Positions 1,638-56,075 of a stretch of DNA of 64,000 nucleotides are shown here, one piece after another. A program made the translations under genes and the position numbers. Origin of the DNA: Obrimoposthia wandeli (lineage: Eukaryota); assembly GCA_977020255.1 (NCBI GenBank), contig CDROCS010001491.1, positions 1,612,001 through 1,676,000 on the forward strand, written 5' to 3'. Below the pieces are notes generated by a model. The model searched no databases. It was not told the DNA's origin and worked only from the letters and a program-made list of their open reading frames with translations. Numbering within the stretch: the first letter of the stretch is position 1; each line of letters opens with the position of its first letter.

Positions 1638-4600
1638 GTGAGTTGCAATATTTATCATTTATTCAGAGTCAATGTATTAATTGTCAGATGCTTTTAATAA
1701 TTTTGAATTATTAATTATGATATTTATTTTATTTACCCTCAATAAAAATTAAATTTACTCGATAAATAAAATTGTAATTTAAGATATTATTTACTTTGTT
1801 TCCATGCCTCTAAATTCTAAAACTATTTTGTAACATAAACTGCGACACGTTTTAACTATTTACTCCTCAAATGTATTTTGATGGGATTATTTTTAATTGT
1901 ACCGTAATTTTGTCAGAAGTATTTTTGTAGTTCTGTACAAAATATTTACTATGTAAAGATTTGAAACATACTACTTTTAAAAATAATTTTCAGCAATTTG
2001 TACAATTTTTGTTCATCAAACTATTTTATAATAGATTCTTATGGAAATCCTTAAAGCGTAAATCTTTCACTTTTGATTTTGCTCAAAATTAAACTGAAAA
2101 GTATAAAATTAATTATCGAAATTTAAAATGACCTTTTAAAATTGACTAGATATAAAATTATTTTCAATAATATATTTTAGAATGGAATACGCTGCCGTGG
2201 TATTTATAGATCAGGGTTACACAACGAGGCTAATAAAAAAAATGTGAGGGCTGTAGGAATATATATCCAAATGAGAATGTATCATTTTCAAGAAAAAAAA
2301 GTAGTTTAGTAGGTAGAAGGATGGAGTCTAAGCCACTTGACCCCCCCCCTAAAGGGTGTCACACCATAAGGATGTCTTGCCACACCATAAGGGTATATGT
2401 TGCCTCACCTCTGGTGAGGCAACATATACCCTTATGGTGTGACACCCTTTAGGGAGGAGGGGGAGGGGGAGGGGGAGGGGTCAAGTGGCTTAGACTCCAC
2501 CCTTCTTTGATATACCACTATGGTCGTCCATAGGTTAAAGGGTCAAGTGGCTTAGTCTCCACCCTTTTTTTTGGCTAACCACTATGGTCGTCCATAGGTT
2601 AAAGGGTCAAGTGGCTTAGTCTCCACCCTTCTTTTGGCTAACCACTATGGTCGTCCATAGGTTAAAGGGTCAAGTGGCTTAGTCTCCACCCTTCTTTTTG
2701 TGATCTAGTCTCCACCCTTCTTTTTGTGGTCTAGTCTCCACCCTTCTTTTTGGCTAACCACTAATTCAAAGGGTCAAGTGGCTTAGTCTCCACCCTTCTT
2801 TTTGTGGTCTAGTCTCCACCCTTCTTTTTGGCTAACCACTAATTCAAAGGGTCAAGTGGCTTAGTCTCCACCCTTCTCTTGTGGTCTAGTCTCCACCCTT
2901 CTTTTTGGCTAACCACTAATTCAAAGGGTCAAGTGGCTTAGTCTCCACCCTTCTTTTTGTAATCTAGTCTCCACCCTTCTTTTTAAGATCATGTGAAAGT
3001 TCACACTTAAAAGTTAAGGAATGTATGACGTAATCATACACACACTATTCTATGTGAAAATTTAGGTTAAAGTTCACTCTTATCAGTTAAGGAATGTATT
3101 ACGTAATCACACACATACTATTCTAAGTGAAAATTTAGACTAAAGTTTTTCCTAGGCTTACACATCTAAAGAATTATGTTAAAATTTGTATTAAATCAAA
3201 AAAAAAATAAATAAGAAAGAAGTCAGAGAATAATACAAAATTAAACACATTTATTATGTAATTTCATAATGTCCATAAGCGCGGCTTCTATTTTTCTCGA
3301 TCCAATAGCGTTTGTCATCTGATGAGCTGAGAGCAGTCTTTTGTATTATGATCGTGTATAGTTGATGATTTATTGTTCCAAACTTCTTTTGAGGTATAGT
3401 ATATGCAATACCGTTTTCATACACGTCTAAATATGTTTGATGTACAACCGTTGAACCCTTAAGATTTACTCCTTTAGCTTTATTATTTTCAAAGTCATCT
3501 TCAAACTTAAGTGAATAACATTTACAAAGTAAGAAAATCCATTCTTTATACATTCGTCCTTCCGATTCATCTTTAAATAAACCTATTTTACTATTAAATT
3601 TATTAGAATATAATGGATCATTCACATTATAATTTGACGTATCTAATAATCCATCTGCAATCATTTTTGGTAACAACTGTTTTCTTAAATTAACGTTTTT
3701 ACATTCCAAAAAGAATGAGTCGGTATCACCGGCAACTATATTAATTGAACAATTGATTAAATTACGATATATTTGCAAATCATGATACTGAAGAGTATAC
3801 ATTCGTAATTTGCTAAGGTCTAGTACAGCTTGGCCTATATAATTTGGTCGATCGAGACAAATAAAATCTTTTCTTAATAAAACAGCTATTAAATTATCAT
3901 GAATTTCAATTGTTCGTTGAAACATAGGTTTGCTAGTATATGTGATTAATTTTGTAGAACTAGTGCAGATGCGAAGATTCAATCGTTTCTTAACATTTTC
4001 AACGGTCTTTCCATACAAACTAACATTTTTAAGTTTATAAAAATCTTTGTCACATTTATTCGTTGCTTGTGATCTCATTTCTGAATTATATTCTATATAT
4101 TCTGCGAATATCTTAGCCTGAGAGAATTTTACTGCTCGATGAATAATTGTTACCACTGCTCCTAAACTAACATACATCTGCAATAGTCTCCAATGAATAA
4201 CATAATGACTTTTTGGCGAATGCGTCATTATCATTTTTCAACTTTTTTACCAGGTGGACATTTCTTTTCTGGAGCTATAGGAAGATCATCTAAAAAGTCA
4301 TGAAGGTTTTCTGGTATTACCAAGTCTACTTCCATAAAATAACCATATTCAATATGTTCCATGTTCACATTTTTCATTTCATGCAATATTTCGTTTAATT
4401 TTATATCATCAAGAATCCATTAAAAATCTCCTTTTGGTAAAGGTTGATCAAGAGCCCATCCATATAAATTATTAACATCTATATATAAAAGACTTGTTTC
4501 TTCATCAGCGACTACATGATGCTTATTGACAAATGTCATTCCTCCTCGTATACCCGAAGAAATCATGTTGTACATTTCAGGATCCTGCATCAGTTCAACC

Positions 4601-7600
4601 TTATGTTTTAACATTTTTAGAGCACTTGCCCAACTCAACCCAGGAATGCTAAAAAAGTTAAGTGGTTCTAAACCATCTTCACTGAGAGCTTTTCTTCTGA
4701 ATGTTTGAAACACGTCAGCTAATAAATATACGTCAGTCTTTAAGTAAACTAACATATAATCAACATATTTCTACAATTGGTTATTTTCCAAACATCTTGT
4801 GCTTTTTGATATTCAGTGTCTGTGATTTTATCATTCCATTTTATTGGTAAACTTAACTTATTCTGGAGGACTTTTAATGATGTAGCAAAATCATATGGGA
4901 ATATTCCTTTGCCATCAATAAGTTTAGATAGAAAAACTGATCTTGTTAATGGAATAATTGGTAATTTACTGGCTAAATTTTCCAAAGATGATTGTAAAAA
5001 TTGCAAAGAATCTATAAATCTCAGAGTTATTTGACCTAATCTTACAATCATGGCTTGAAACTTTTCCGTTGATTGTGGTATAATATTTATATCCCAGTCA
5101 GTAAATTTATTCAATGCATGTTTTAAAATATGATGTAAATCATAACCTCTGAGATTATGAAACACAATAGGTAAAGTTGGACGAAGTTTTCTTGATAAAT
5201 TACATTCATTGCATGCAGGACCTAAATACTTGCCAGTAAAGTGATCATGATCTTTAACATATTTTTCAGATGATTCGTGACATAAATAACATTCAACGGT
5301 ATTGTTAAATGTATGAATCTCTGCATTTGTTAAGGGAATCATTACGTTTTTAAGAGCATCTAAATACCATGGCAAAACCTTTTCTTTAGCCAAGTTCTCT
5401 ATTGACTGAAGAAATTTAACTATGCAGTCATCACCAACATTATATCAATTTCATCTGTACTCATAAATAACATACCAGATGCGACAGGCATATGCTTTTG
5501 ATGATAACTCTCATCTGGTACTAATACAGATTCAAAATCAGCGTAAACGACATATTTCGGTGATATAGTTTTTGACCAATCATTGAATTTAACGTACTTA
5601 TTCTTAGGCATAGTATACATTGTAGTGCTTTCTTGATTATAGTCACATAAAACTTTATGCTTTTCTAATGACAAATCGGTTTTGAAACCATGTAAACACT
5701 TTTCACACCATTTTCTGCTAATTCTAGTCGTTCCAGTTCGAATATTTAATAGTCGGTTAAGACAACTTATTCCTATATAATGAAACCGTTCCTTGGATTC
5801 TAGTAACAATAAATTAACTATAGTTCCTTCCTTCATTTTTGATTTGTATGCAACATCGATATAAGGATTCTTGATAACATCAGTTTTTGATTCTTTTTCA
5901 CTTACCTCGTTGAATATGAATACATTTATTATTATACCAGGATTTTGCAGTTCAAATTTTGATATATTTGATATTTTCATTGGCATGTCTTCGGAATTAT
6001 ATACAAAATCATTTAAAAATCTTTCATAGTTGCTTGGTCTATTTCTATGTGATTCTATTTCATTATATTTAAGTATTGACAATATTGCATAAATAAAGCA
6101 AAGATTATCAGAGTTTAGAATATTTATGACTACTTTAGATTTTGTAAGAGAATTTGGTGATTTAATATATGAATGACCTGACAATGCACAAATTTGACTA
6201 TATTTAGTAACAATAAATGCATATTCAAGTATATTCATCAATTTCCAACCACTACCTTTTTCTGAATATTCTTCAACTTTATTTTCCATTGTATCTTCCA
6301 TTTCTGAAATTATAGCATGTGAAAAAATCATTGCTCGATGCGAAGCATACCATTCTTTAGTTTCTCCATCATTCTTTTCAAACCTCATTCTAATGATGTA
6401 TTGTATCTTTGCTTTTCCCATTAATTGTACTATTCTTTCTAGTTCGTTTAATAATGAAACTGGAACCTTAAGACTTACAAGATTGAGATGATCTACTTTC
6501 ATGGATATCATTGAATAACTATTTTCTAACGATGTTTTAGTATGTATATTGTCATTTATTTTACGTTTTCGTGACGGAGTAGGAGCTGAAATTACTATGT
6601 TTGATGGTTCATTAATTATATCAGTTCTTTTGCTTAAAGCCGGTACTTTAAATAATTTTTTCTTACTATCATTTTCATATTCTTTTAAATGACTAACATG
6701 TCGACTATAAAATAAGTTGTAATCAACATTTTCAGTGCTTAAACATTGTGGACATATGAAATAATTTATCCTTTTGTATGAATAACCAAAATATTTTTTC
6801 ATTATATCATGACATACTTGAGGATTAAAATGTGTATCCGAATAACAAAAATTTGAATAAGTTTTACATATACTCATCTGATGATATGATTGATTTGATT
6901 GGACTTGAGATATTGATTGATTTGTAGACTGAATAAAAAAAATATATAAATACAATAATTTAATTATTTTACTTACAATGTTAACAAATATTAATTATAA
7001 AGGAATTTGCTTAGATGATGTATCCAAATTAAAATTTCGAACACGACCAGAACAATACGTTTATAAAGCCAAAGATTATACAATACTTATTTTTAGAAAT
7101 AAGAAATGCAGGATTATGGGATGTAAGGTACCTATTAAAAATATTTCTTACCCTTTAAGGATAAATATACTTGGTATTCAATCAATTACGATATGTGAAA
7201 ATTTAGATCAAAGTATCAATCTATTTAAATTATGGAATGTGTTACGTAATACATGTTCATTTGACCCTGAGGTTTTCCCAGGCTTAAGATTAAATATTTT
7301 CAATCCATTATGTGTAAATATTTTCACATCTGGAAAGGTCGTAATTTTAGGTCTTAGAAATTTAGATTTTCAAAATCAAGTTAACGATATCATGACATAC
7401 ATTAAAAAAAATTATATAAATACGAAACAATTTCTAATTAAATCATTCAATTTTAAATGTCTTATAAAGCCGTTCAAAAGTATTACGAGTATGATATGTT
7501 CTTCTTGGCATCTGCATGGATTCATCCAATGACTATGCCAGTGACATTATCGAAAACTTTGTACAATTACCGAGTCTCTGATTTTGACGACAAAGACATT

Positions 7601-10600
7601 CAACAATTCAATGAAGTCGTCAAATATTTGAAAATTGACATTGAACTTGAGAATGAGGGTATATTTATGCGCGGAGATAAGTGTAAATTTTATGATTGTG
7701 GTGGAACAAAGATTTCGGATATTCAAGAAGATGGAAGAAGTTGGATGCTCGAAATAAAAATTCTCGGATATAAAATAAATAAACAGAATGAAACAACTCT
7801 CATCTGGAGGATTCATACAGCGACCGAATATTTTGATGTTTAATAAATATTTAATAAATGTTGTTATTGTTATAAACATGTACTTATTCTGATATATTTA
7901 TTTTATATTAATATTTATATATAATGTTATTAACAAACAATTCGACTTTTCAAGTAGTAGGACCAAGTGGTAGTGGAAAAACTTTATTTGTTTGTAAATT
8001 ATTAAATTCAAAAATGTTTAAAAATAAATTTAATAAAATATATTGGCATCAAGGTGGTGATGGAGAAGCTGGTTTAACAAACCAAGAATTTAATAAAATA
8101 AAAAACATTAAGATTATTAACGGTTTTGATGAAAATTGGACGACAAGACTCGTAAAAGGTGATGTAATTGTTATTGATGACTTATATCAAGAGGCTAACA
8201 AAGAATCTGATTTTAATGATTTATTTACAAAAATTGCAAGACATAGAGAAGTTACTGTAATTTTTATAACCCAAAATTTATTTAATCAAGGAGGAAATCA
8301 TCGTACTCGTAATCTTAATGTACATTATTTGATTTTATTCAAAAATCCTAGAGATCAAACAGTGATAGATTTTATTGCTCGTCAAGCATTTCCTCATAAC
8401 AAGAGTTATTTAATTGATGCGTTTCATGATGCTACATCTTTACCTCATGGTTATTTATTTTTAAATTTTACTCAATCATGTCCTGATGATTTAAGAATTG
8501 TTACTGATATATTTAACCGTAATGGTATTACAGTCTATAAACAAAATAAATAATAATAATGTTTTAAAATAAAATGAATTTAAAAAGAGTATTCTTAAAC
8601 ATAGTAAAAGGACAGATAAAGATGAAGTTAAAAAATTAATAAACACTGTATTATATGATCGTAATAATATTGAATTTTCAAAAAGTTTACCTTATTTTAA
8701 AACCTTAATTGACGTACCTAAAACGAATAAAATGAAAATGTTGAAATCATTTCCAATTTATGTAGTTGATGATTTAATAAAAATTTTAAATAAAATAATT
8801 TATGGTAAAATTAAACCTGATGATAATATTTTAAAATATAAAAATTCATTAATAAATTTAGCAAATTCACGTGGTAAAATTAATAAAAGAAACATTATTT
8901 ATAATCAAAATGGCGGATTCATATTGGTCCTACTGCCCGCTATAGCATCAGTAATAGCTAGTGTTATATCTTCAAGATGGGGATAGTTGTCTTAATAACG
9001 AAAATTATAATAATATTAAATAATTACATTCTTTCGTTTTATACAAACATATAAACAGATTAAAATATATTTAACTTTTATAATAATGGGGATAAACAAT
9101 ACAAAGTTGTCTAACCTATTTATAAATTTTAATTCTTCATGCTCCAATGGAAAAGATTTGGAACAATCCAGAAGATCCAGACGGTTATACAGGGTTAGAA
9201 AAATTGACAAAAAGAGTCAAACAATCAAAAACAAACACACAAAAATGGTTAAGAAATGAATTATCATATAGTCTGAATAAACCTTTAAGACGTAAATTCC
9301 CTACTAGATCATATAAAACTAATGGTATTAATTCGTTATGGCAGATGGATTTAATGGAAATGATTCCTTATTCTTCAGTAAATAACGGATTCAAGTATAT
9401 TTTAACTTGTATTGATGTATTTAGTCGTTTTGCAAGGGCAGTTGGTGTTAAATCAAAATCAGGTATTGATTTATTACATGCAATATAATCTTTAATTGTT
9501 GATGATGTACCAGTAAATATCCAAACCGATGAAGGTAAAGAATTTTTTAATTCACATGTTAAGAAATTATTTAAAACTGAAAATATCAATCATTATTCAG
9601 TATATTCTCAATATAAAGCTGCAGTAGTTGAAAGATTTAATAGAACGTTAAGAGAACGGTTAAAGAAATATTTTACTAAACAAGGTAATAAGAAATGGGT
9701 GAATGTATTACCAAAAATTATTTATGCTTATAATAATTCTAAACATAGAGGTTTAGATGGTTTAAAACCTGTAGATGTAAATAATAAAAATGAATTTGAT
9801 ATTTTGTTGAAACAAAATCTAAAAGAAAAGAAAGTTAAATCTAAATATAAAATTGATGATTATGTTCGAATATCAAAAATAAGTACAAGTCCATTTATTA
9901 AAAATTTTAATCAAAATTGGAGTGATGAGGTTTTTCAAATTCATGATATTAATTATAAACAAAATCCAATAATGTATATTTTAAAAGATATTGATAACGT
10001 CATCATCAAAGGAAAATTTATAAACAAGAGTTACAATTAATTGATAAACCTAAACTATATCGAATACAAGAAATTTTAGAAACTAAAGGTCGTGGTAAGA
10101 ATAAACAATATTACGTAAAGTGGCACGGATACTCTGAACCTTCTTGGATATTTGCTTCTCAAATTGAATAATGTCAAAATATATTATTTTACCTAGTAAT
10201 AGTTGTCCAAGTACTCAACCTAACAATACAGCCAATCAATTTACTGTAGATTGGGAAAACTCTCTAAATTTAGATGGTGAATGGGAGGTTGCCTTGACTG
10301 AATTTGTATTTAATTATACTCCTTTAACAATACAAACTAATTCAAAAATACTTTATAAAACGGAAAAGATAGAAATGAAAACTTTCGATGTATCTTTTGC
10401 AATTTTAAATGGATTAATTTTTAATAATTTAAATACTGTTTTCAATTTCAAAATTACAAAGGATCAAAAATTAGAAATATGTACAATTAACAGTATTCAT
10501 CGAATGTTGTTAAAATTCGAAACTTTAGAAGAATCAAAAATTATAGGTTTTAATGAAATACAAAAAATTTCTAGTCATGTTATAACAAGTGATGAAATTG

Positions 10601-13600
10601 TTGACATAAATAAAAATATTCATGCTAAAATGAGAATTACAATTTATTATTTAGCTGAATATGAATACGAAATAAAATTTAATCAAAATTATTTGATACA
10701 AGATAGTTCTTCATTATGTAATATTATAGCCAGTAAATGTAATGAAATTTTTAAAAGCTGTAATATAGATTCAGACGGATTATTTGATATTTTAATAAAG
10801 AAAAATGTAAAATCAGTTTTATTTGACGAAAAACTTGCATCTTTATTAGGTTTAAATAATGTTTTCTTTGAGAAACGAATTAAAGGTTTTCAAAAACCAA
10901 CACTTTCTAACTCATATAATCAAATGTATATTTATACTAGTTTAACAGATTCTGTCTTAGTAGGATCTGATTATGTTCCACTGTTAAAGTCTATTTGGTT
11001 AAAATCATTAAAATATCGATATGGAGATGTAGTAAATGTTAAAATTGATAATCCAATGTACTTGAAAATGAGAGATTCAAGTATTAATAGAATCGAGGTA
11101 AATATACGTGATGATTCTGGTAATTTAATTCCATTTTCATATGGAGCAAAAAAACTAGTTTAACTCTTCATTTACGTAAAGTATAAACAATATAAATATA
11201 TTTAAAATATAAACATATATAAAATGAATACATCAATTATAAAATTTTATAGCAAAAGTCAACAGGGCGGTGAACTTCCCTATTTCATTGGTAAACAATA
11301 TGGATCTGGTTGGTATCAAACTATTTCTAGATTAGCTATTCCATTTATTAAAAAATTTGGTTTATCAGCAGCTACAAGTGCTGCCAATGTAATTGGTGAA
11401 ACGGTAGGAACTGCGTTAACAAATCCAAAAAACATAATTTCATCTCTCAAAGAAAATACAATCAAAGAAGTCAAAACTTTGATTCCAAAATTAAAAAATA
11501 ATGCTGTTGAGAGTTTAAATAAAGTCGCAAATTGTGTTGAACAAAATGGAAGGGTCTTAAACGTAAAAGAAATAATTTAAATAGTATAAACAAACGTCTT
11601 AAAGGTACTATTTTCCAAAAATGACTAGTATAAAATCTGAATTGTGTATTTTCGATAGATCACTACCTCAAGTAGTGATTGAAAATTCAAGTTTTGAAGA
11701 AATATTTCCAATCAATTCAATTACTGGAAAAAATTTAAATGACATAGAATTTAATATTCATGCATCTGAAGAAGATTATCTGGATTTGAATGATACTTTG
11801 TTAAATATTAAATTAAAAGTTGTAAATGAAGATGGTACTGATTTAATGAAAGATAGCGATGTAACTCCAGAGAATTACATGTTTCAAACTTTGTTTAGAG
11901 ATGTTATTCTAACACTTAATAATGTAAAGGTTGAAGGAGGAAATGGAACGTATACTCATAAGGCTATATTCGATACTCTTTTGAATTTTAGTAGTGATAC
12001 CAAGTATACTAACCTTGAATGTTCCGGGTATGATGATGATGCAGAAAGTCGTAAACAATGGATTAGTGAATCTAAAATATTTTCATTGTGTAATTCAATT
12101 AGATTAGATTTCTTTGATCAACCAAAATATTTGATTCCAGGGATTAATGTTCATTTGAGATTTATGAGAAATCAGCATAATTTTTCGCTCTATTCAGAAA
12201 CTTCAAAACCAATTATTCAAATTCTAGATGCTAGATTGTATGTTAGAAGAGTAAAAGTTGATTCTTCAGTAATGATTGGACATCAGTTAGGTTTGCAAAG
12301 TCAGAATGCAGTTTACCCAATTAGAAAAACTCAGTTAGTAACATATTCAATTCCTCAGGGTTCTTTAGAACTTAATAAAGATCAAATATTCGGAGACTAT
12401 CGTTTACCCAAGTTCATTTTGATTGCTTTCAAAGATACACCTCAGGGTGGTAAGGAATACAAAGTTAAATCTTCTACGTTCAATACATTTAATGTTTCAA
12501 CAATATCATTAGCTAAAAATACAGATTATCGAGAAACTTATAATCTAGATAATAATAATTTTTCATTAGCATATATGCAGTCAATTATTCGAAATATGAA
12601 TATTTTAGATAAAAACGTGAATAATGGTATCAGATTTTCTGATTTTAAATCAGGAAGTTCGATTTTCACTTTTCTATTAGCACCAGATTTTGATATAAAC
12701 ACTACTCAAGTGCCTAAAACTGGTAATTTAAGACTTGAAATTAGATTTAATTCTCCTTTGACCGTTCCAACAAGTGTTTTGATTTACGGAATATTTGATT
12801 CCGAAATTCAGATTACGAAAAATAAAACTGTGATTGTATGAAGTAAGCTTATTGTATATTATATTCTTTATTTAAATTAGTACTTTAGAAATTTATAAAT
12901 CCGGAAAAATATTATTGAATAACAAATTTAATGGAGTATATTCATTGGATAAAATTCCATCATTAAAACCCGGAGGCTACATTATCAATACTCATACTTC
13001 AAATCTACCAGGCGAACATTGGATAGCAATATTCGTTGACAGATTCGAGTGTTTGACCCTTTTGGATTCTATTATCCTTCAAAGTTGGTGTCTACACTTG
13101 AAAAAGAAAACATTCCAGTCTACTATAATCGAGTTAAATGTCAGAATCCATTAACTAAAAACTGCGGACCTCTGAGTCTTTTATGGTTGAAACTTCAACA
13201 CAAATAATTTGAAGTATAAACAAATATATCATTATAGTATTTCATTTTATTTTTTCAAATGGCTTTTATTGATTTAGAATGTTTTATTGATAATAATGGA
13301 GAATATATTCCAAAGGAATTATGTATAATGTATGTGAATGATATGACTTGTCCATTTCATTACGTGTTTAAAAATCAAATACCATGGAGTAGTTTATCAT
13401 TTACAGTTAAAAGAAAAAATCTATATTTGATAAATCATCATCATCAGTTATCCTGGTTTGAAGGTGAAAGCTCTGATATTCATATTGATGATGTTGAAAC
13501 AATATTCTATGTTATGGATTCTATTGATGGAAAGAAAATTAATTTAGTGAAACGAATGTTTCCAAATTTAAGAATTGTGAATTATAATAAAAGTTTCAAA

Positions 13601-16600
13601 AATTTAAAGAAAATGCCAAAAAATATTCGATGTCCGTTTAGAAAACACGGAAAACATTGTGCTTATTTGAAATGTTTTTCTCTATGTATTGATTATGTAA
13701 ATTGTATATAAATATATTTATTAAGGATATTTATTTTAATATATAATTTATGTTATTTAAATAAATTTTATCATATTTCTTTAGATGTGTAAGCCTAGGA
13801 AAAAACTTTGATCTAAATTTTCACATAGAATAGTGTATGTATGATTACGTAATACATTCCTTAACTGATAAGAGTGAACTTTAGTCTAAATTTTCACATA
13901 GAATAGTGTGTGTGTGTTAAAAACCACATTCCTTAACTGATAAGAGTGAACTTTATCCTAAATTTTCATTATGGACGATCATAGTGGTATACCAAAGAAG
14001 GGTGAAGACTAGACCACTTGACCCTTTGAATTATGGACGATCATAGTGGTTAGCCAAAAGAAGGGTGGATACTAGACCACAAGAGAAGGGTGGAGACTAA
14101 GCCACTTGACCCTTTGAATTAGTGTTAGCCAAAAAGAAGGGTGGAGACTAGATCACAAAAAGAAGGGTGGAGACTAAGCCACTTGACCCTTTGAATTAGT
14201 GGTTAGCCAAAAAGAAGGGTGGAGACTAGACCACAAAAAGAAGGGTGGAGACTAAGCCACTTGACCCTTTGAATTAGTGGTTAGCCAAAAAGAAAGGTGG
14301 AGACTAGACCACAAAAAGAAGGGTGGAGACTAAGCCACTTGACCCTTTGAATTAGTGGTTAGCCAAAAAGAAGGGTGGAGACTAGACCACAAAAAGAAGG
14401 GTGGAGACTAGATCACAAAAAGAAGGGTGGAGACTAAGCCACTTGACCCTTTAACCTATGGACGACCATAGTGGTTAGCCAAAAAAAAGGGTGGAGACTA
14501 AGCCACTTGACCCTTTAACCTATGGACGACCATAGTGGTATATCAAAGAAGGGTGGAGTCTAAGCCACTTGACCCCTCCCCTCCCCCTCCCCCTCCTCCC
14601 TAAAGGGTGTCACACCATAAGGGTGTCTTGCCACACCATAAGGGTATATGTTGCCTCACCAGAGGTGAGGCAACATATACCCTTATGGTGTGGCAAGACA
14701 TCCTTATGGTGTGACACCCTTTAGGGGGGGGTCAAGTGGCTTAGACTCCATCCTTCTACCTACTTAGTTTAAATTGGTTTTTTAATGAGATTTAATGAGA
14801 AACACGCTTTTCCTATTCGAGTGTCATATTTTACGTTGAGGTTTCAAAATGTATTTTAAATGGTCGTTAGTCAAACAAGAACGTACTTTTTTATTGAAGT
14901 TCATGATGGAGAATGTCTGCTAACATTTGTAGGTGCTGCCAAAAAGACAGAACAGTTTCATTGCGGGATCTATAAAAAAAATGTACTTTTTACCATCCAA
15001 ATTTTTGTAGAAATCCTTTAAATCCTTCTCTGTGTTTATTTCGTTACATTACCGAACATTGCTGTTCAATAACTTCCCACTGTCTCTCTGGATCAACAGA
15101 AAAAGTATCTTCAATTAGTTTTAATTGAATGTCTTCCATAGTAGATAAAGTAAATCCTTTTCCAAATTATTCAATCAATAAGTCAATTTGCTTTACAAAA
15201 TTTTCACCCAAGTCGATGGGTTTTTCTGAGGAGTATGCAGAGCACACGTGAGAAATTTTGCCTTTCATCAACTGAGTCCTGAAAAGATTCAATTGCATTT
15301 GAAAACTATTTACTATTGCAAACATTTCAAATACAAATCGATACTTCCCCTCAAACTGTTTATTCACATTATTCAGATGTTTTGTAATATCTCAAAAGAA
15401 AAAATATCCTAATTCCAAGCTTCTACTTTGAGCTCAAGGAATTTTTGTGGTTCTTTTTCAAGGACATTAGTTATTTCTTCTTTCAATGTGACAAAACGCT
15501 GAAGTACTCGTCCACAACCCAACCATCTCGTATGCCAGTGTATGGTAAAGTAAGTTGATGCACTCTAAAAGTTATATGTTTGAGTCCATCTAGATCGGAT
15601 GTAATTTCTCGAAAATAGGCGGAATTCTCGAGTTTTTTACATTAATTGATTACTGAGATTTGAGGAAATGTCAGTTATTCTTCTCTGTATAGTCATTCTT
15701 GATAGACTGACATTCTCTAATAATCTTTTTTTCTGAGCATAATCACGTAACAGCTATTAGCATACACTTCTTTGCAAACTCACCTTTTGTAAAATATTTC
15801 CCAGCAGCAGCAATTTCCCTTGAAATTTGTAAGGTTATGTTGGTACCTGTCTTATTTTGTGTAAATGTTCTTGAACATTTGTGGTATTTAAGATAGATGC
15901 TTTGATTTTTTTTTACCTTTTGATTCAAATTGGAGGGAATGTGATGTTTGGTTTTAAAGTGGAATTGAAGATCGTATTCCTTCGCAATTACTGTCGTTTC
16001 ACGACATACGAGACAAGTTATTTTGTCTTTGAACATAGAAACATATATTTGTTCGTCCATTCTGTTTCTATTTTTCTTTTTTTGTCATGCTCATGGTTAA
16101 AAATAACTGTAGAAATAAACATACACATAAACAAATATTTCGTTTTGTAATTTATTTCCATTAAAATTAATAATCATATAAATATTATATTTTAAAGTCA
16201 AATTATTGAAGTTTTGAAATAAATCATTTGTTATAACAAAATAATATACAAAAATCATATTCAATTTAAAAAAAAAAATTTTAGAAGATTTTTTCCATTC
16301 CTCATATTCGTAATGTTATAATAATATAACTACTGCGGTCCGTTTGTTGTGCAGGTCTGGGTTAACCCAATAAAATTATAAAAATATTAACAATTAATTC
16401 AAAACGATAACTGTAAATTTCAGCAGGATTTAGGCTTTACATTTTCATAGGGTAATTATATATTTTAACTAATTATTATTAAATCTATGTAATTAAATGT
16501 ATTAATAAAGTATTTTGTTTTTGTTTACTTTCAATATTAATGTATTTTGTATATAAATTAATATAATTATTAAATTTTTAAATTAATTAGTTATTAACAT

Positions 16601-19600: not shown

Positions 19601-22600
19601 AGTAGGTAGAAGGATGGAGTCTAGATCACTTGACCCCCCTGTGTGCGCACACCAAGTTAAAGGGTGTCACACCATAAGGGTGTCTTGCCACACCATAAGG
19701 GTATATGTTGCCTCACCATAGAAATGTCACACCATGAAGGTATATGTTGACTCACCATAAGGGTGTCACACCATAAGGGTATATGTTGCCTCACCATAAG
19801 GGTCTGGCTCAGAAAGGTTAAGATAGGGGGGAGGGGGGAAGGGTCAATTGATCTAGTCTCCACCCTTCTTTGATATACCACTATGGTCGTCCATAATTCA
19901 AAGGGTCAAGGTCAGTTTTGACTTGAAGGTTTTAAGGTATGATCATGACCGTCTATGGTTGGCCATCACATCTAAAGGGTTGTGGTCGTCCATAAATCAA
20001 AGAGTCAAGGTCAGTTTTGACTTGAAACTTTGAAGGTACAACTAACATCTAAAGGGTTGTGGTCGTCCATAAATCAAAGGGTCAAGGTCAGTTTTGACTT
20101 GAAACTTTGAAGGTATAATTAAGGTCAACTATGGTTGGCCATCACATCTAAAGGGTTGTGGTCGTCCATAGGTCAAAGGGTCGGACTAAAAAATTAAAAT
20201 ATCAAGGTTTTAGTACATGGTTGTAATCAACTTTAGAAGACGAAGTCACCCATAAAGTATGGTTGGTCATATATGAAGGGTTCGGGATATAGACCAAATC
20301 AAGTTTTAAATGTCAAAGTTTGAATACATGGTTGGAATCATCTTTAGAAGACCATATGTATGGTCGTCCATAGATGAAGGGTTAAAGAAAAGTCGGAATT
20401 TCATAGTTTCAAGTACATGGTTGTATTCGTCAACATATTACGAGTTTAATCATGTAAAATTTTTATGGTCGTTCACAAGTTAAGGGTCAGATTTGGAACA
20501 AACATGATAATTTTATTACATGGTTGTATTTGCTTATGAAAATTGACTTCAAAGATACCCTTAAGGTCATGCATACTTTAAGAGGTCCTTGTGAAAAAAT
20601 AAAAATACTTGTAATTTTCTAAAATAAAAATATTTTTAAATTTAAATTTGTGCCAAATTATTTTGTTAGATTTTGGTAAAGATAAACAAATTTTTAATTT
20701 AACGGGTTTTTTTAAGATATTAAAGTAACATTATTTAAAATAAATATTAAGGAAAATGTTAATAAACTCAAATTACTTTACTAATAGTATTATTATTATT
20801 ATTATTATTATTTGATAAATATTTAAATTTACGCAAATTTTTATCCATTTTATTAATGTAATTAAACAATTCCTGGTCCTGGTGAAAAATAAAAAAAAAA
20901 ATACTTGTAATTTTCTAAAATAAAAATATTTTTAAATTTAAATTTGTGCCAAATTATTTTGTTAGATTTTGGTAAAGTTAAACAAATTTTAATTTAACGG
21001 GTTTTTTAAGATATTAAAGTAACATTAATTAAAATAAATATTAAGGAAAAAAGTTAATAAACTCAAATTACTTTACAAACAGTATTATTATTATTATTTT
21101 ATTTATTTTTTTCATAAATATTTAAATTTACGCAAATTTTTATCCATTTTATTAATATAATTAAACAATTCTTTGCGGAAAAATTACTTTTAATTTTGTT
21201 TTTTCTTCAAAATAATAATAATTTAAATTTACGCCAATTTAATTTATTATATATTATTAAAGTTAAACAAATTTTAATTTAACAAGTTTTTAAATAAAAT
21301 ATTAAAGTACCAACACATCTATCAATCAATTATTCTATGTGAAAGTTCACTCACTCAATGTATTACGTAATCACACACACACTATTCTATGTGAAAATTT
21401 AGTACAAAGTTTTTCCCAGGCTTAGGCATCTAAAGAATTATGGTAAAATTTCTTTAAATAACTTAAATTTCATGTCATAAGGGTCTTGGAGAAAAATACT
21501 TGTAATTTTCTAAAATAAAAATATTTTTTAAATTTAAATTTGTGCCAAATTTTTCATCGTTTCTTTGATTTAATTAAACAAATTTGATTTTAAACATAAT
21601 GTTAATTATAAAATAATTAATAATTTGATAAATATTCATCTTACCACAAGTTATTCATCGAATCCATTGATGTATGTCCGTCAGCCTAATAGCATTATTC
21701 TATATTCTAACTGTAACTTTAGAAAAAATAACAAATTTATTACATTAAAATTTAAAAATTGCGCGGTTTTTTATTGTTTACAATTAATGTATTTAAACAA
21801 TGACGAAAATAGTTTCAAACGTAAAACAATTCATATAAATTATAACTAATTTATTAAAATAAACAAATTTACAAGTACTATTTGATATTTTTAAAATATA
21901 AATAATTTATTTAAAAAAAAAAAGAAGAATACTTCAGTTAAATTTTGATAAAAATCTGTAAAATGATAAATTCTAACATATTTTTTAAATTACCGCCATT
22001 TTTATATTATCCCTTTTGATGTATTTAAACAAATGTATATACAAACCTAATTATTATAACTATAAGTTAAATATCTTAAATATTTATTAATTTTAAAATT
22101 GCATTATTTTATGCCTAAAATAATTTGTAATTTTCAAATTAATACTAGCAACCAATGAATAACATTAATAATATGTTTACATTATATTAATTAATATGTA
22201 AATTTTCATGTATGTGTTTTCTCTCACATAACTTTCACATGTTATAATGATCAATTAACACTCACATAAATAATTAAAACATCCTTATAACATTCCTTAA
22301 TTGATTTTTATTTAAACTGATAAAATTAACTTCATGTTATTCAAAGCTTACTAATTAAAGAAATGTTTATTTATATAATTTGAGTATCAACTTTATTCGA
22401 TTTACACTATAAATATTCGAAAATATCTTTAACACATTAAAAATAATCATAACTTCATGTTATTCAAAGTTTACTAGTTAAAGAAATGTTTATTTATATA
22501 ATTTGAGTATTAACTTTATTCGATTTACACTATAAATATTCGAAAATATCTTTAACACATTAAAAATAATCATAACTTCATGTTATTCAAAGTTTACTAG

Positions 22601-43368: not shown

Positions 43369-46300
43369 TCTCAGGACTATTAAGCTTCATCAACCAGTAT
43401 CAATTATTTGCGAATACACTTAATTGGAATGAAAGGACACAATGCGACAGATTCCTCTTACATCTGAAAATTACTGCTATCCAAGCATGTTTGAAAATAG
43501 ACCCACGAAGAAGAAGAAATTGAAATCAATTAATTTGAGAAACAACTAGTCAATGGTGACAAGAAATTCATTGCAACTAGAAGTTTCAGAACACGTGACC
43601 AACGAAGCGATGAAAATGTAACGCAGTACGCATTCAATCTGCATAAATTAGCTGCTGAAGCATTCCCAGCACTCGGAAACTAATACATTGATACATTTTT
43701 AATATACCAGTTCCTTCTTCGAGTGAAACAACTTATCAAAACCCCACTGATGCTAGCAGATGTTACGACATTTTACGAAATACTTCAAAAACGATGTCAG
43801 GTAGAGTCACGAATGGGGTACGGTCAAATGTAAATGGAATGATGATTGAAATAAAAGAAATACAGCTCTCAATATCAATAAACCTAATTACAGTGATTAA
43901 AATTACGACAGACATCAGAAACGAACATACCAAGAGAAAACATTTCACACAGACAATAAACACGATAGACCTATTTACACAAATAAATATCAAGCATTAC
44001 AAAATATCAACAATTTTAAACACCCCAAAATGATAGGAATTTTAAACCAAATCAAGCATGTTTTGACAAGAATAAAAATAAACCATTCTATAATAATAAA
44101 AATAATACAAATTATTATATTAAAAATCATGGTCATACAATTGACTACTGTTGGTTCTTAAAAAATAATAATTTAAACAATATGAATTATAATTAAAATA
44201 CACAAAATGATTATAGTAAAGTAAGATTTGATAAAGAACCCCCTAAACAAGTCAATACAAACTTCGCCCAACTGATAGAAAATGATGAATAAATACGACA
44301 TTTAGAATCGGTTATAAAATATCAAAATATCAAATAACAGCGAGAGGAAGAAAACGAAATACTGATAGTCATGAAAACGAAAACCCCGAAGATGAGATGG
44401 CGATCCTCGACATCAAGCAGTGGAAGCCCCGGGACCGGCGAATCATCAGAATGTGCCATTGTAATGATGTTTGCTCTGAATTGCGTAATAGGAACCAATC
44501 CAAAAATAATTATCCAACTAAATGGAAAAAGTAGATTAGCGCTGATAGATACTGAAACCTCCACAACATTAGTAAATAACAACATTGTAAGCAAATACCA
44601 GAGAAAAATTATACAACCAACTAACTATATAATAAATACAATGAGTGGTAACAAATTCAAATCTGAACGATCAGTATCATGTTCAATAGGCATATGTAAT
44701 AGAATAATTGAACAAAATATTATAGTCGTTAAAAACTTACCGTTTCCATTTATAATAAGAATGAATATTCTCGCACAATTAAAATGTGCTGTATTTGACC
44801 CTACAATTAACAAATTAAAGTTCGAAGGGGAAGATACTATCAATTCAAAGGAAGTAGTTTTGGACGAAGACCTATCAGGTTCAAAATGGTGTGAAATATC
44901 ACTGACAGAACGACTACAAGAAACAAAAATTATGTTTGAACTAAATCGAGACTTCGAAGATAAATATAATCTTTTTTTGACCCCAACAGTTAATGTTCCC
45001 AATCAAGGAAATATTTGCGTAAGGATGGCGAACTGTAACATGACTAATATATGCCTTAATAAAGGCATTAAAATTGGAAATCTAACTCATATAGATCAAA
45101 ATGATATTTACCAGAATGATTATCAAATCCACAGGATCAAAGATCTGAAAATTCGAAATAATCTTCTTACGAATGATGAAAAAGGGAAACTTATTAAATT
45201 TCTCTTAAAATATGACACTGTATTTGCTGAACATAACTACGATTTAGGAAAAACGACATTGATAAAACATCTAATACCACTTAATAGTAATAATTTGATA
45301 AATCAAAAACCATATAGCATATACATTAAAGGATGAAGTCAAATGCCAAGTACAAAAAATGAAGGACAATAAGATAATACGACCTATTTTTTCATCATGG
45401 GCTTCTCCCATTGTAATGCTGAATAAAAAAGATGGAACCATGAGATTTTATGTAGATTATAGAAAATTGAATTCAGCTTCCAAAACGGACACGTACTCAC
45501 TACAAAGAATCAGCGAAATTATGTAAATTATGTAATGCACAATACTTAAATATTATAGCTACAAAGCTGTTATTGGCAAATAGAAATTGAAGAAGAAGAT
45601 TAATACTAAACGGCTTCTACGACAGGAGAAAGAATTTTTGAATTCAATGTGTTACCATTTGGACTTACTGGTGGTCCCTCCACATTTCAAATATGTATGA
45701 ACTACATATTAATGAATGCAACCATGATATGGTGTATATAGATGATATTATGATATTTTCAAAAACCTTTTAAAAGCATTCTAAAGATATTGAAGAAATA
45801 CTAGAAAGACAACAAATATCTGAACTTAAATTAAAACTAAAAATGTGAATGGGCACAATCAGTATCGTTTCTGGGCCATGTGGTATCAAAAGATGGAATT
45901 AAACCAGACCCATCAATTGTAGAAAAGTTTAGTTCCTTCCCTATCCCGAAAACGTAAAAGACATCCAAAGCTTTTTAAGACTCACCTGTTACTACAGAAA
46001 GTTTATACAAAATTTTGCAAAAATAGAGGAACCATTATATTTACTAATAAGATATTAACTTTGTGTGAAGAAAAAAACAACAAAGTTCATTTGACTAATT
46101 AAAATACATTCTCACTACTTATCCAATATTACGATTTTCATATATGAACAAAATATTCATCATCATGACTGGCGCAAGTTTTTATGTGTTAGGAGCAGTA
46201 TTAGTTCAAAAAGACAATAATGAAAAAGAATATGTAATTGCCTATGCAAGTCGAAGCTTAAAATCACACAAAAATAACTACTCTACAATATAAAAAGAAG

Positions 46301-46853
46301 CATTAGCAATTGTAATTGCTGTCAAACAATTTCACCACTATATATGGTCACCACTTACAATGGCTAATGCAACACAAATATAGAACAAGCCAACTCATAA
46401 GATGGGCCCTTTGCTTACAAGAATATGGACTCTTAATAAATTATAGAAAATAAAAGGCTAATGCAAATGCAGATTGTTTGTCGAGAATATTGTAAAAAGA
46501 ATCTCATGGTAACTTTATTACATGTGAACCAGATACACATAAAATAGCTGATTATCAACAAAAAGACCCTGAAACTAATAAAGAGATAATTAAATTACAA
46601 AAAAGAGGAAATAGTTCATCAAAAACTAATTACATATTAAACGATAATATACTATACTACAAACCCCACGAAAAACAACTTTTAGTAATACCAAAAGATC
46701 TAATCGATGACTTATTAATGCACTATCACGATGGGATTTTGGGTGGTCACAGATAAAACACAGGAAAACACTTAATCACTTATGCGAACATTACTATTGG
46801 TCCAATATAGAACGTGACATGAAGAGTTGATGCAAGACATGTAATGTATGCAT

Positions 46854-46870
46854 AGTAGGTACTACCTACT
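46854..46870. mobile_element. 17-bp fused Polinton termini (AGTAGGTA + CTACCTACT) inserted in the Gypsy integrase Zn finger
   Basis: Exact match to 8 nt of the left end plus 9 nt of the right end of the 2308-14764 element. Flanks ATGCAT / GCGCAT (imperfect 6-bp TSD). Removing 23 nt restores CKTCNVCMFQK. Confidence 0.65.
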
Positions 46871-48529
46871 GCGCATGTTTCAAAAGTCAACTTAACATTG
46901 TAAAGCCGAATTAAAACCAATAACCCATCCTACATCACCGATGAAAATAACCGCGGTGGATATATTAGGACCATTTCCAGAAACTATTAAAGGATATAAA
47001 TATATACTTGTCTTTTCAAACTATCTAACTAAATGGACTGAGGCATTTGCTTTACCAAATCAAAAAGCAGAAACAATAACCAAAATATTTACTGAAGAAA
47101 TACTATTGAGATTTGGACCACCAGTGAAGATAATTACTAATCGTGGAACAAATTTTATGAGTGACGTAATCGCAGAAGTAATGAAATTCTTTCGAATAAA
47201 AAAACTAAATACTTCTCCTTACCATCCACAAACGAACGGGCAGGTAGAAAGATTTAACCATACTTTAGAAAATATGCTATTCGCATATGTTAATAATAAA
47301 CATGGCAACTGGGTTGAATATATCGCAACATGTCCATTCGTCTATAGAAACACTAATCATTCAACTACCAAATAAACACCTTTCTTTTTAATGTTTTACG
47401 CGAATTTCGAATGCATACAGGCCTGAATTTTCTACTACCTTTGGATCAATACATGGCAACACCAACCTAAGTAGTTACTATGAAAGAGCGTTTGAAAGAA
47501 GCTAGGGAGAAAGCAAATTTAAATATTAAAGTTTCCCAAGAATATAAGAAGGAAAATTATTATAAAATTGGTAAACAACATAAATTTCAGACAGGCGACA
47601 AAATATTAATTTGCGTACCGTTACATCAGATAGGTTTAACAAAAGAAGTTCCATAAACCATACGAAGGGCCATATGAAATTATCGAAGTAATTGAACCAA
47701 ATTTAACAGTAAAATCATTAGTTAAAAAAGAAATACAAACAGTTCATGTAAATAAATGTAAACCTTATTACCAGACTCAAGACAACCAAAGATATAATTT
47801 GAGAAGCAATATACTTCCACAGGTCAATATTACAAATACATTTTTCGCAATTATTACTCTAGCAGTAATTGCTTCATGCTGCGGTGTCTAAACAAAAATA
47901 AAATTATGGACATATGCTATGCACCTATATTTATGGCAAAACAGAAGTACTTATAATTTTGAAATTTACACATTACCAAGAATATTTGATATAATCATAA
48001 AGGTATAACCAAATGTTGGTACATGTTGTGAACTTATAACATGTGGAAACTCAAAAAATTCTTATACAATAGTGAATAAATCATCAATAAATGCATTTGT
48101 ATGCAAACATATGTTACCATACAAAATGTTTCAAATAAAAATTCGGGAAAAGACAACATATTTCAATTCTTTGTCAGAACATTACAATTTTTACATCAAC
48201 CAAAGAACTTACATATAAGATCAGTACAAGAAAAATATATATTTGAGTGGAAAAGCTTACTTAGCGTGAACAAATTTAACCCAACAGGCTCCAAAAACCA
48301 AAACATTAATACTGATATATACCACGAAGTGAATATTTATAATCTACAAAAAAACACACTCCCCTACAAATAAGTAAATGAAATAATAAATACAAAACAC
48401 TCTACAAAATAACAATAACATGTTCTATACAAGAGTGCGACATGCTCTAAAAGTATTTACTTTAACATCGCAATACACAAGAATAAAGAAAAGATCTGCG
48501 GTGGCCCGACAAGCAATATATATATACAG

Positions 48530-50700: not shown

Positions 50701-51138
50701 TTTGAAAATTATTTTTTCTTTTTATCTTATTGATTATTTTTGTGTTACATAATTGTATAAATATTTTACATAACTTTACTAAATATAAACAATTTTATAT
50801 ATAATGTTTTTTTATAATATAGATCATAAAATAAATTGGAATAAATTATTCATTAAATTATCTCCAGATGTAATGGAAGATTATGAAAAAAAATTATATC
50901 TCAAAAAATTATACTCCTGAAATTGTTGCAAATAAAATATGTAATTTACTTTCCAAATATTTAGGTAGGTTTACATTTAATATAATTTATTTTAATATTC
51001 ATAGGAGAATTGAAAATATGTACCAATCTAAGGAGAAAAATGAATCCTGAGTATTTTGATATTTTAAAACATTTTGATAATTGGTTTTTTATTTTTATTC
51101 GTTATAAACAAAGGGATTTGTTACTTATATGTGTAATT

Positions 51139-51432
51139 ATGCAAGAATATATCATAGACTTTGAAGCTTTCATTAACAAAAATGGAGAATATATTATAAA
51201 AGAATTATGTATTATGGATATATGCGACGTTTTCCATCCTTTGCATTTCATATTTCATATAGATATCCCGTTTAGGAGTTTAGATTATAAGAAAAAGTTT
51301 ACTAATTTATATCTAACTAATTATTTTCATTTATTAAAATGCAAAGGAAAACATAAGGCTTTTTGTAAATATGTATTTTCGATACAATTAAATCTAATTT
51401 TGATATTAAAAATAGATTATTTTATGTTTTAG
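51139..51432 (+). pseudogene. Truncated DEDD exonuclease-like gene, block A copy
   Basis: MQEYIIDFEAFINKNGEYIIKELCI, near-identical to 56076; internally deleted. TATAAACA 36 nt upstream. Confidence 0.75.
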
Positions 51433-51717
51433 ATGAAATGTATGGTTAAAGTGAAAGAAAAAACACCAACACTCTTTCAAAATTTTCCAACAAAATTCCA
51501 CCTGTACATCAACATCCTCTTGGTTGGGTTCTATTATGATGAACTTTGTGAATTGTCTTCTGTATACAGGCCAACGAGGGTATGTTGGATGAGGAAACTC
51601 TCCATAAGTTCTGATCCATTTTGATAAACACTCCTCGTGGTATAGGTGGTTGCAGGCATTGGGTCTTGTTCTTCGTTCTGGTATATTTTCTAAACATATT
51701 GGACATTCCTCAGACAT
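51406..51717 (-). CDS. RING-H2 E3 ligase-like protein (C-terminal ligand pair decayed)
   Basis: CPICLE..ACNHLYHEECLSKW..RWPVYRRQF (C3H2C3 pattern with the last CxxC mutated). Confidence 0.7.
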   Translation of the reverse strand: MSEECPICLENIPERRTRPNACNHLYHEECLSKWIRTYGEFPHPTYPRWPVYRRQFTKFIIIEPNQEDVDVQVEFCWKILKECWCFFFHFNHTFHLKHKIIYF

Positions 51718-52958
51718 TCTAAATATATGATAACGATTAATTTCTGCATGGTTTCTACATAATTCTACACTTGTTTTTTACAATTACTTCTACAACATTT
51801 CTACATATTTTTATACACTAATTTATCTACAACCTACTCTGACTTGTCATGTCTTGATGGGAGGCAGAGGCAAGGGTTGCAATTCCACTTCCTCCATCAT
51901 GGGTGTGTTACAGAATCGCAGCTCTTTGCATCTCTAGAGATTACGGCCATTACGATAAAAGCATTGACTGGTGTCATTCAGCTGTCTGAGGATTGATAAT
52001 CGTACTTACTTTTGATGTTTGTCGGGTTGAATGGCGTTTCGAGTGGTGCTGTTTGGTTTCCGTGTATTATTTTCGATCTTTTGATAATTCACGGTTTCAG
52101 ACTTATTGTTTATTGTCTAAGTGATATTATTATTCGATATTTGAAATCCAGTGGAATCGTTCCCTTTACTCTTCTCCTCTAGATGATTGTGCTTTGGTTT
52201 CTGGAATTGGGCTATCTTCCTTTCACCTTTGCCTTTTTTATGATTGTGTTTGGTTTCCCGGGATGGAATTTCCTGGGTCTGATTCTCGTACCTATTCGAT
52301 TAAATTGACTTGTCTGGTACTTTAGAGTTACATAGTATATTTGATTTGTTATTACAATGATTACAGTAGAGGTTTCTTAGCATCACTGGGAATTCGGTTA
52401 CATGTACACTCGGCATCATAATGTGGTATCAAAATTTGGGGTTGTATTGCGAATTTGATTCTGTCATCTGGATTGGGACACGCCACTGTTACCTTGTCAG
52501 TTTCCAGCAGTCTGAAAAACAGGTTAATGGAATTCCATACGGTTTTACGTCGTTTACCTATGACCATAATCCTGTCAAAAACTTTCCAGGTACGCTCGTC
52601 AGTAGACAATATTACTGATTTTGTTCGGATAACTTGGATAATCCGTTTTCTTTTAGATATAGTTATTTGTAGATATAACATATTTTCATAATAGAATAGG
52701 ATCAGTCGGTAGTAAAGTGTATGATTGTCAATCTATATTTTAATATCGCAGATAACGTATAATTTTTTGATCAACATTTTCAGTTGCGGATGTTTGTAGT
52801 TGAATGTCTAATATGTGATTTCTTTTTAGTAAAAGTATTTCTATGTATAGCGCTCGTATCGTATCTTGTATCCATTAACTGACAATGATCTCGTAACCAG
52901 CTTCGGTCGTGGTGACTTGTATGACCAAAATGATTCCTATTATTGTCCGGTTCCGAAT

Positions 52959-53465: not shown

Positions 53466-53509
53466 GGCTTTACTGTGAGACGTTTTGATTATTTCTAAGG
53501 TGTTGTTTC

Positions 53510-55941: not shown

Positions 55942-56075
55942 ATTTTATAGATTATTATTTTGTCTTTATTGATTATGTTATAAAATTGTCTAAATACTAC
56001 CTCGTCATTTTAATAAATTTTTGATTAATAGTTTTTCGTTATAAACAACGGGATTTGCTACAAATTTGGGTAATT

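Follow-up and report, generated by a model that had tools for sequence, protein, structure and literature searches.

The closest described systems are the viral TATA-binding proteins (TBPs) of beta- and gammaherpesviruses. KSHV (Kaposi's sarcoma-associated herpesvirus) ORF24, EBV (Epstein-Barr virus) BcRF1 and HCMV (human cytomegalovirus) UL87 are described in the text of PMC12529657 as virus-encoded TBP folds that have a polar DNA face, work with the RNA polymerase II (Pol II) of the host, and use a minimal non-canonical TATA box (TATTWAA) before late structural genes. According to the same text, KSHV ORF24 lacks the acidic TFIIB-binding residues. Virophages as well as PLVs (Polinton-like viruses), small integrating DNA viruses, carry shared promoter motifs before a gene class (text of 10.1101/2022.07.28.501842), and Nucleocytoviricota encode viral TBP folds. 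For adintovirus-like elements, a TBP label appears in the figure legends of Starrett et al. (PMC8502044; 10.1101/697771), whose main texts do not contain the word promoter and describe no cognate box. Here, we analyze 64,000 nucleotides (nt) of DNA from Obrimoposthia wandeli (hereafter the window), in which a 12.5-kb Polinton/Maverick of the adintovirus type, at 2308-14764, carries both a TBP gene and a recurrent box, TATAAACA. In the literature covered, we found no description of a Polinton promoter box or of its TBP. The main texts of three surveys (10.64898/2026.10.13.758929, 10.64898/2026.06.19.733378 and PMC11131425) mention neither TBP, TATA nor promoter; subscription papers, Repbase reports and supplements, which lay outside this scope, may list the gene.

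The sequence strongly supports TATAAACA as the core promoter box of late-class genes, and we hold this conclusion with high confidence. The forward strand reads TATAAACA at all ten positions listed by an earlier note on this DNA (Table 1), and the whole window contains 16 copies on the forward strand and 0 on the reverse strand. Within 7844-13800 (74.7% AT), Markov backgrounds of orders 0-4 predict 0.63-1.37 copies against the ten seen, with Poisson P values from 1.5e-9 to 1.9e-6. TATAAACA is the top-ranked 8-mer of this region at orders 2 and 3, and its P of 1.5e-9 at order 2 becomes about 1e-4 once all 8-mers are allowed for. Its reverse complement occurs 0 times in the region and TATAAATA 2 times. 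Two further copies, at 35808 and 37160, lie outside the segments that match Polinton families of the host genome (G000) and are probably due to chance.

The boxes are conserved among copies of the element and are placed by gene. The host genome contains at least 150 copies of this family (F0) with 98-100% TBP identity. Among 20 copies checked (mean identity 98.4%), the boxes are identical in 17/17 to 19/19, except for those at 11585 (16/17) and 11208 (14/17). The names pX, PZ, penton and DEDD follow the earlier note's labels and gene order rather than folds. As had been claimed, boxes lie 36-53 nt before the ATGs of the ATPase, pX-like, PZ, major capsid protein (MCP) and DEDD-like genes, while the TBP gene and open reading frame (ORF) 7457 have TATAAATA instead. 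The claimed pair at 51103 and 56040, in a second element, each lies 36 nt before an ATG; these two sites are one duplicated segment (88% identical). Where boxes were said to lie inside the upstream coding sequence, this is true of 9954 and 10019 (integrase gene) and of 12694 (MCP gene), but the penton site that relatives have in common with F0 is AATAAACA at 10100. The sites at 9954 and 10019 are family-wide in F0, but have no position in common with other families. The box at 9050 stands 97 nt from the integrase ATG (9147), a distance typical of the integrase box in relatives (88-123 nt in 7/12). Among relatives, the core ATAAAC is invariant, position 1 is T in 121/153 sites, and position 8 is A in 140/153.

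Related elements carry the box before the same genes. We detected six further Polinton families (F1-F6) in the host genome, with MCP DNA about 63-84% alike where alignable. In all six, at least one of the loci taken contains a TBP gene, and boxes stand before the gene classes that are boxed in F0. The DEDD gene of F1 runs in reverse, and its box moves to the minus strand with it. A metagenome scan added 74 loci which, together with F0-F3, form 62 clusters at 85% DNA identity. Scans of viral contigs for MCP relatives returned none, and the TBP scan gave 6 loci at 30-40% identity. In an unbiased 7-mer count upstream of genes, which includes an outlier (L119, below), TATAAAC ranks first before MCP (42/51 against 0.84 expected) and level first before PZ (32/34). 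ATAAACA ranks first before the ATPase (12/13), penton (18/20), DEDD (15/21) and integrase (8/13) genes. Without the outlier, ATAAACA is found in 130 of 149 late-gene windows and its reverse complement in 3, with 11.6 expected for each. Among de-duplicated relatives, NATAAAC[AG] precedes 129 of 140 starts of ATPase, pX, penton, PZ, MCP and integrase genes; in clusters where a TBP gene is seen, it precedes 50 of 54 such starts. Protease genes are boxed in 21 of 26 elements, mostly at 35-55 nt and with C, A or G at position 1; for comparison, 32,800 nt of MCP body contain 3 sites.

The box has the orientation and spacing of a TATA box. The nearest box lies 33-56 nt before the ATPase gene in 12/12 cases, 17 of the 18 DEDD genes with a box have it at 33-47 nt, and 33 nt is the floor for ATPase, DEDD, MCP and penton genes alike. 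Transcription starts about 30 nt downstream of a TATA box. The spacing before the ATPase and DEDD genes thus fits such a start followed by a short leader. TBP genes themselves are never preceded by the box (0/11); a canonical TATA sequence lies within 250 nt of 7 of these 11 genes, 6 times at 33-57 nt.

Selection acts on the DNA of the box. Among 34 elements with enough sequence, the box before PZ is found in the penton tail only in 20, in the spacer only in 13, in both in 1, and in neither in none (Fisher 1.5e-8, with related rows). On an MCP tree (FastTree) of 31 of these elements, this pattern needs 6 changes, of which at least 4 are forced by well-supported branches. The 19 parsed elements that retain the inner box all spell it ATA AAC, codons with a pooled MCP usage of 0.29 and 0.25. 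F0 encodes the same Ile-Asn with ATT AAT and has acquired spacer boxes.

The element TBP is a reduced TBP with an altered DNA face. Close homologs number 16 (43-52% identity), and 52 representatives match it at E below 1e-30. Its model (pLDDT 93) has a two-lobed saddle fold and finds cellular TBP as best Foldseek match (E 1.3e-9; TM about 0.7-0.8 of the query). The N-terminal lobe has strands and no helices, being reduced to its sheet. Residue conservation was assessed in 80 proteins chosen by an N-lobe motif, with positions and lobes assigned in what we take to be yeast numbering. Where cellular TBP has hydrophobic residues, element TBPs have conserved polar ones. Asn stands at the V71 position in 52/53 proteins and at L205 in 63/63, and Thr or Ser at V161 in 60/63; for the Arg at V122, the choice of the protein set accounts for part of the fixation. 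By this assumed numbering, N, R, M, S, T and N of element TBPs correspond to V, V, T, N, V and L of cellular TBP. The acidic EPE stirrup is retained in 67/69. Three of the four intercalating phenylalanines are conserved, and the first (yeast F99) finds no aromatic counterpart in the shortened N-lobe. The TBP of the host itself is canonical. The host genome also contains several TBP-family paralogs (L206-L213), two of them head to head on one contig (C238). A TFIIB search of this genome returned 12 matches, none of them a multi-copy element gene; the window clade would thus need host TFIIB.

Introns point to nuclear Pol II. Short GT-AG introns lie at one position in the TBP genes of F1, F2, F4, F6 and L057, and the protease intron is at the same position in 11/26 elements (12843-12880 in the window copy). 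Some families have introns in their TBP and protease genes and others are without them.

The box changes with the TBP lineage. The earlier note had proposed splitting motif enrichment by TBP presence. We made this comparison in one table of late-gene windows: 140 from the window clade, 6 from L119, 30 from group III (L160-L174), and 6 from L244. NATAAAC[AG] is found in 129/140, 0/6, 3/30 and 1/6 of these, respectively; TTAAGC in 1/140, 5/6, 2/30 and 0/6; and TATTTAAG in 0/140, 1/6, 9/30 and 0/6. L119 (3582-13072) is an intact Polinton with an MCP 28% identical and a different TBP (Pfam 4.1e-12). It has no ATAAAC box before its late genes. Its top upstream 6-mer is TTAAGC (7/18 ORFs, P 1.5e-7 before correction for 4096 words), whose TAAG core is presumably reminiscent of the baculovirus late motif. 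L119 also carries two penton-like genes. Group III (L160-L205) comprises eukaryotic contigs inside one bacterial assembly, in which the TBP gene stands beside a TFIIB-like gene (e.g., L165:8586-9943) and TATTTAAG is the top 8-mer (9/36, P 5e-15). Several of its families have two MCP paralogs. L244, a complete Polinton of 12.3 kb, has repeats at each end, and profile search reveals no TBP in it. In this sole complete TBP-less element found, TATAAACA is present in 0/6 windows, and there are mixed TATA-like sites with no shared box. Within the reach of these samples, the split by TBP thus favors the proposal of the earlier note.

Other candidate TBP-less controls were rejected. Searches of the host genome with distant MCPs returned just the TBP-bearing clade, and so yielded no TBP-less control from the same host. 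The window's second element is the DEDD-polymerase arm of F1 (96-98% identity), full copies of which encode TBP. Two F6 loci (L148 and L149) have no TBP gene in the 20 kb taken, because their MCP genes are immediately preceded by other element pieces. L130 was too decayed, and L151 and L153 were too incomplete.

The element TBP probably reads the box. Because the box stands before capsid and packaging genes and not before the TBP gene, and because other TBP versions go with other boxes, a pairing of conserved box and element TBP is likely. Of the early/late switch proposed by the earlier note, the gene-class-specific, oriented and TATA-spaced promoter box stands, on conservation, strand, spacing and turnover; we infer the binding of the box by the element TBP and, from gene class alone, the early/late timing. 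We consider it probable that host machinery starts the TBP gene, and that the element TBP then reads TATAAACA and turns on the late-class genes. From the canonical TATA box of the TBP gene, host TBP and Pol II would drive the first transcription. The element TBP would then bind TATAAACA and recruit host TFIIB, through its retained acidic EPE stirrup, and Pol II. Transcripts would start about 30 nt downstream of the box, from the ATPase, pX, integrase, penton, PZ, MCP, protease and DEDD-like genes. The missing N-lobe helices would free the element TBP from some host TBP regulators. In a broader reading, toward which we lean only slightly, Polintons evolved a one-gene orthogonal late switch more than once. 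Each switch would pair a minimal TBP with a private TATA variant (TATAAACA, TTAAGC or TATTTAAG) that co-evolved with the DNA face of this TBP, and TATTTAAG would have converged on the TATT box of herpesviruses. The TBP tree, in which L119 sits on a long branch with unsure placement, does not settle separate origins of the three TBP lineages.

Several observations, here and under the first two alternatives below, weigh against the element TBP as reader. The apparent loss of one intercalating phenylalanine could weaken DNA binding. A TBP gene is seen in just 11 of the 62 clusters, because most contigs are short. Codon shuffles reveal no depletion of the box inside MCP genes (3 vs 3.6). Three distant loci (L100, L101 and L113), whose TBP status is not established, have TATAAATA before MCP. 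The lineage control is small, with one TBP-less element and one lineage II element (L119), and lineage III amounts to five families from one contaminated assembly, with its own box in just 13/30 windows. Box, TBP, phylogeny and host all covary across lineages.

The alternative that survives best, though we judge it unlikely, takes the box for a weak TATA variant that host TBP, or a host paralog of it, reads. Its C7 would keep the structural genes quiet until copy number rises, and the element TBP would do something else, for example act as a decoy. There is a structure of cellular TBP on a C(-25) TATA variant (PDB entry 1qn3), the text of PMC8643651 describes a Hoogsteen pair in the C(-25) variant complex, and in Arabidopsis protoplasts TATAAACG retained 27% of activity (PMC10005294, Table 4). 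Host TBP is therefore able to use a box of this kind. Several TBP paralogs exist in the host, and the TBP-less L244 has two TATAAAC sites, with TATAAACT and TATAAACG before its ATPase and pX genes. However, many variants would serve as a weak TATA box, yet C7 is fixed, and T7 occurs in just 4 of 40 late windows without the exact box. Furthermore, boxes differ among TBP lineages, the DNA face of the element TBP is strongly conserved, and ATAAACA is found in 0 of 12 host histone upstream regions.

It is improbable that the box is a forkhead site through which a host forkhead factor sets the timing of late expression. The forkhead consensus RYAAAYA works in either orientation, with G or A as purine and C or T as pyrimidine. 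ATAAACA fits this consensus, as the earlier note had pointed out. The reverse motif, TTGTTTA, is found in 9 of the 12 host histone upstream regions (0.63 expected), some of which are near-duplicates. However, late-gene boxes are strictly sense, with 130 against 3 reverse, and the host histone motif runs in the opposite orientation. GTAAACA is not used (4/149 windows, 2.7 expected), T7 is rare, the 33-nt floor is sharp, and other TBP lineages carry non-forkhead boxes at the same genes. Thus, orientation and base use disfavor a forkhead site. In the host histone genes (L214-L243), TTGTTTA stands in sense about 35-90 nt before the ATG and may be a host core-promoter or forkhead element.

We give slightly less credence still to a box copied from the promoter of a helper giant virus. 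Sputnik, Mavirus and the Polinton-like PgVV bear the promoter motifs of their helpers (text of 10.1101/2022.07.28.501842). The window element, for which no helper is known, has TATA-like spacing, its own TBP and at least 150 chromosomal copies, and spliceosomal-type introns occur in TBP and protease genes; all of this speaks against a helper. Finally, the idea that protein motifs (S-I-N-K, Y-K-Q) or AT-rich composition gave rise to the box has a negligible chance of being correct: many boxes do lie within upstream coding sequence, but the box is no less fixed in non-coding spacers, occurs in all three reading frames, has no synonymous change where kept and leaves the gene when codons change. 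The compensatory turnover before PZ and the F0 recoding rule out a protein-level origin.

The element has the hallmarks of a Polinton. Terminal inverted repeats begin at 2308 and end at 14764, flanked on both sides by a 6-bp target duplication, TAGTTT. A protein-primed polymerase B and an rve integrase are recognized by Pfam, both broken in the window copy, and a double jelly-roll capsid and an A32-like ATPase are present. The MCP is not recognized by Pfam or PDB sequence searches, but fold search does recognize it (PBCV-1 capsid, E 3.3e-16; mavirus MCP, E 1.5e-13). ORF 7457-7843 has no usable Atlas match. The DEDD-like gene at 13259-13711 has no Pfam match and just an Atlas lead (0.86) to Maelstrom, a piRNA-pathway domain; an anti-silencing role for this late gene is conceivable.

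Table 1. Features of the window element and of the second element. "Box" means TATAAACA unless another sequence is given.
Feature	Coordinates	Strand	Evidence
Polinton/Maverick (adintovirus-type), family F0	2308..14764		Terminal inverted repeats, TAGTTT duplication, copies in G000
Protein-primed DNA polymerase B, several pieces in window copy, no box in front	3254..6877	-	Pfam DNA_pol_B_2 4.6e-10
Predicted early promoter of TBP gene: canonical TATA box TATAAATA, 33 nt upstream	6945..6952	+	Same in 20/20 copies
Element TBP gene; TBP core = residues 1-145; N-terminal lobe without helices; polar DNA face	6978..7532	+	Pfam TBP 5.6e-12; model
TATAAATA, 42 nt before ORF 7457	7415..7422	+	20/20 copies
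Conserved ORF, usually adjoining TBP	7457..7843	+	Homologs 22-30% identical in F1-F6
Box before packaging ATPase, 53 nt	7871..7878	+	19/19 copies; 12/12 relatives at 33-56 nt
A32-like packaging ATPase	7924..8553	+	Pfam Pox_A32 6e-5
Box in last codons of ATPase, 39 nt before pX-like gene (ATG 8575)	8536..8543	+	17/17 copies
pX-like gene, broken in window copy; 136-137 aa in 9/12 copies	8575..8986	+	Label of the earlier note
Box 97 nt before integrase ATG	9050..9057	+	19/19 copies; 8/12 relatives
GATAAACA variant near integrase box	9091	+	
rve integrase with chromodomain-type end, broken in window copy	9147..10172	+	Pfam rve 8.4e-6
Two boxes (9954, 10019) in integrase gene, 217 and 152 nt before penton	9954..10026	+	Family-wide
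Penton box AATAAACA at shared position of relatives, 71 nt	10100..10107	+	18/19 relatives boxed before penton
Penton / minor capsid gene	10171..11163	+	Label from gene order; homologs of relatives 26-40%
Two intergenic boxes (11182, 11208) before PZ, 42 and 16 nt from its ATG	11182..11215	+	Replace penton-codon box of most relatives
PZ-like gene	11224..11580	+	Label of the earlier note
Box 36 nt before major capsid gene	11585..11592	+	16/17 copies; 45/50 relatives
Double jelly-roll MCP	11621..12841	+	Model pLDDT 91.5; Foldseek
Box inside MCP gene, 144 nt before protease ATG	12694..12701	+	18/18 copies
Maturation protease gene, base 5 followed by a predicted GT-AG intron of 38 nt; disrupted further downstream in window copy	12838..13215	+	
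Box 44 nt before DEDD-like gene	13215..13222	+	19/19 copies; 18/21 relatives
DEDD-like gene	13259..13711	+	Label of the earlier note
Box 36 nt before truncated DEDD-like copy of second element	51103..51110	+	
Box 36 nt before DEDD-like gene (56076) of second element, arm of TBP-bearing F1	56040..56047	+	

The window contains further features. The terminal repeat of the element contains a near-perfect 66-nt palindrome (14595-14729), which the left end mirrors. A lone, gene-free left terminal repeat related to the element's own lies at 19601-21450, and another AGTAGG-type end near 28144. Decayed pieces of a long terminal repeat (LTR) retrotransposon, with aspartyl protease and rve integrase, lie at 44338-47891. 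On the reverse strand at 52361-54244, between two DEDD-bearing arms, ORFs of 244 and 167 aa have a hydrophobic segment and cysteines; these could be part of an envelope-like gene, although they have no Pfam match. Two RING-finger ORFs (Pfam zf-RING_2), at 51406-51717 and 63335-63748 (reverse strand), lie near the second element.

The box bears on whether animal Polintons are real viruses and on how their capsid genes are timed. If the broader reading is correct, it would show directly that animal Polintons follow a timed lytic programme, and would provide a natural set of altered-specificity TBP-promoter pairs. A conserved 8-bp box and a 145-residue candidate reader make the promoter idea testable by binding assay or reporter, with no whole element required. 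If the three TBP-box pairs are specific, they would show how TBP specificity is rewired and would offer orthogonal Pol II TBP-promoter pairs.

The proposed switch shares features with each of the known systems and differs from all of them. Cellular TBP and the Pol II TATA box (PF00352) share with it the fold, the FxPExFP and FxSGK motifs of the C-terminal repeat, and a box with a T-preferring first base, sense orientation and at least 33 nt to the ATG. The differences are an identity of about 22%, an N-lobe without helices, and the fixed C7 of the box. The motifs of virophages, PLVs and Nucleocytoviricota are read by the RNA polymerase of the helper or of the virus itself, whereas the Polinton has no RNA polymerase, has introns in its genes, and encodes the candidate reader. 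Herpesvirus TBPs are alike in fold and polar face and use host Pol II, as the element TBP would, and BcRF1 is a weak fold match to the element TBP (E 4.3e-3). The group III box, TATTTAAG, fits TATTWAA, whereas the box of the window clade, TATAAACA, does not. According to the text of PMC12529657, ORF24 is a large, multi-domain protein that acts in a six-protein complex and binds Pol II itself. In contrast, the element TBP is a bare 145-aa core that keeps the EPE stirrup, and the 12.5-kb genome encodes no such partners. The element switch would work like the herpesvirus TBP and its TATT box, but as a separate system, in an unrelated small virus-like element.

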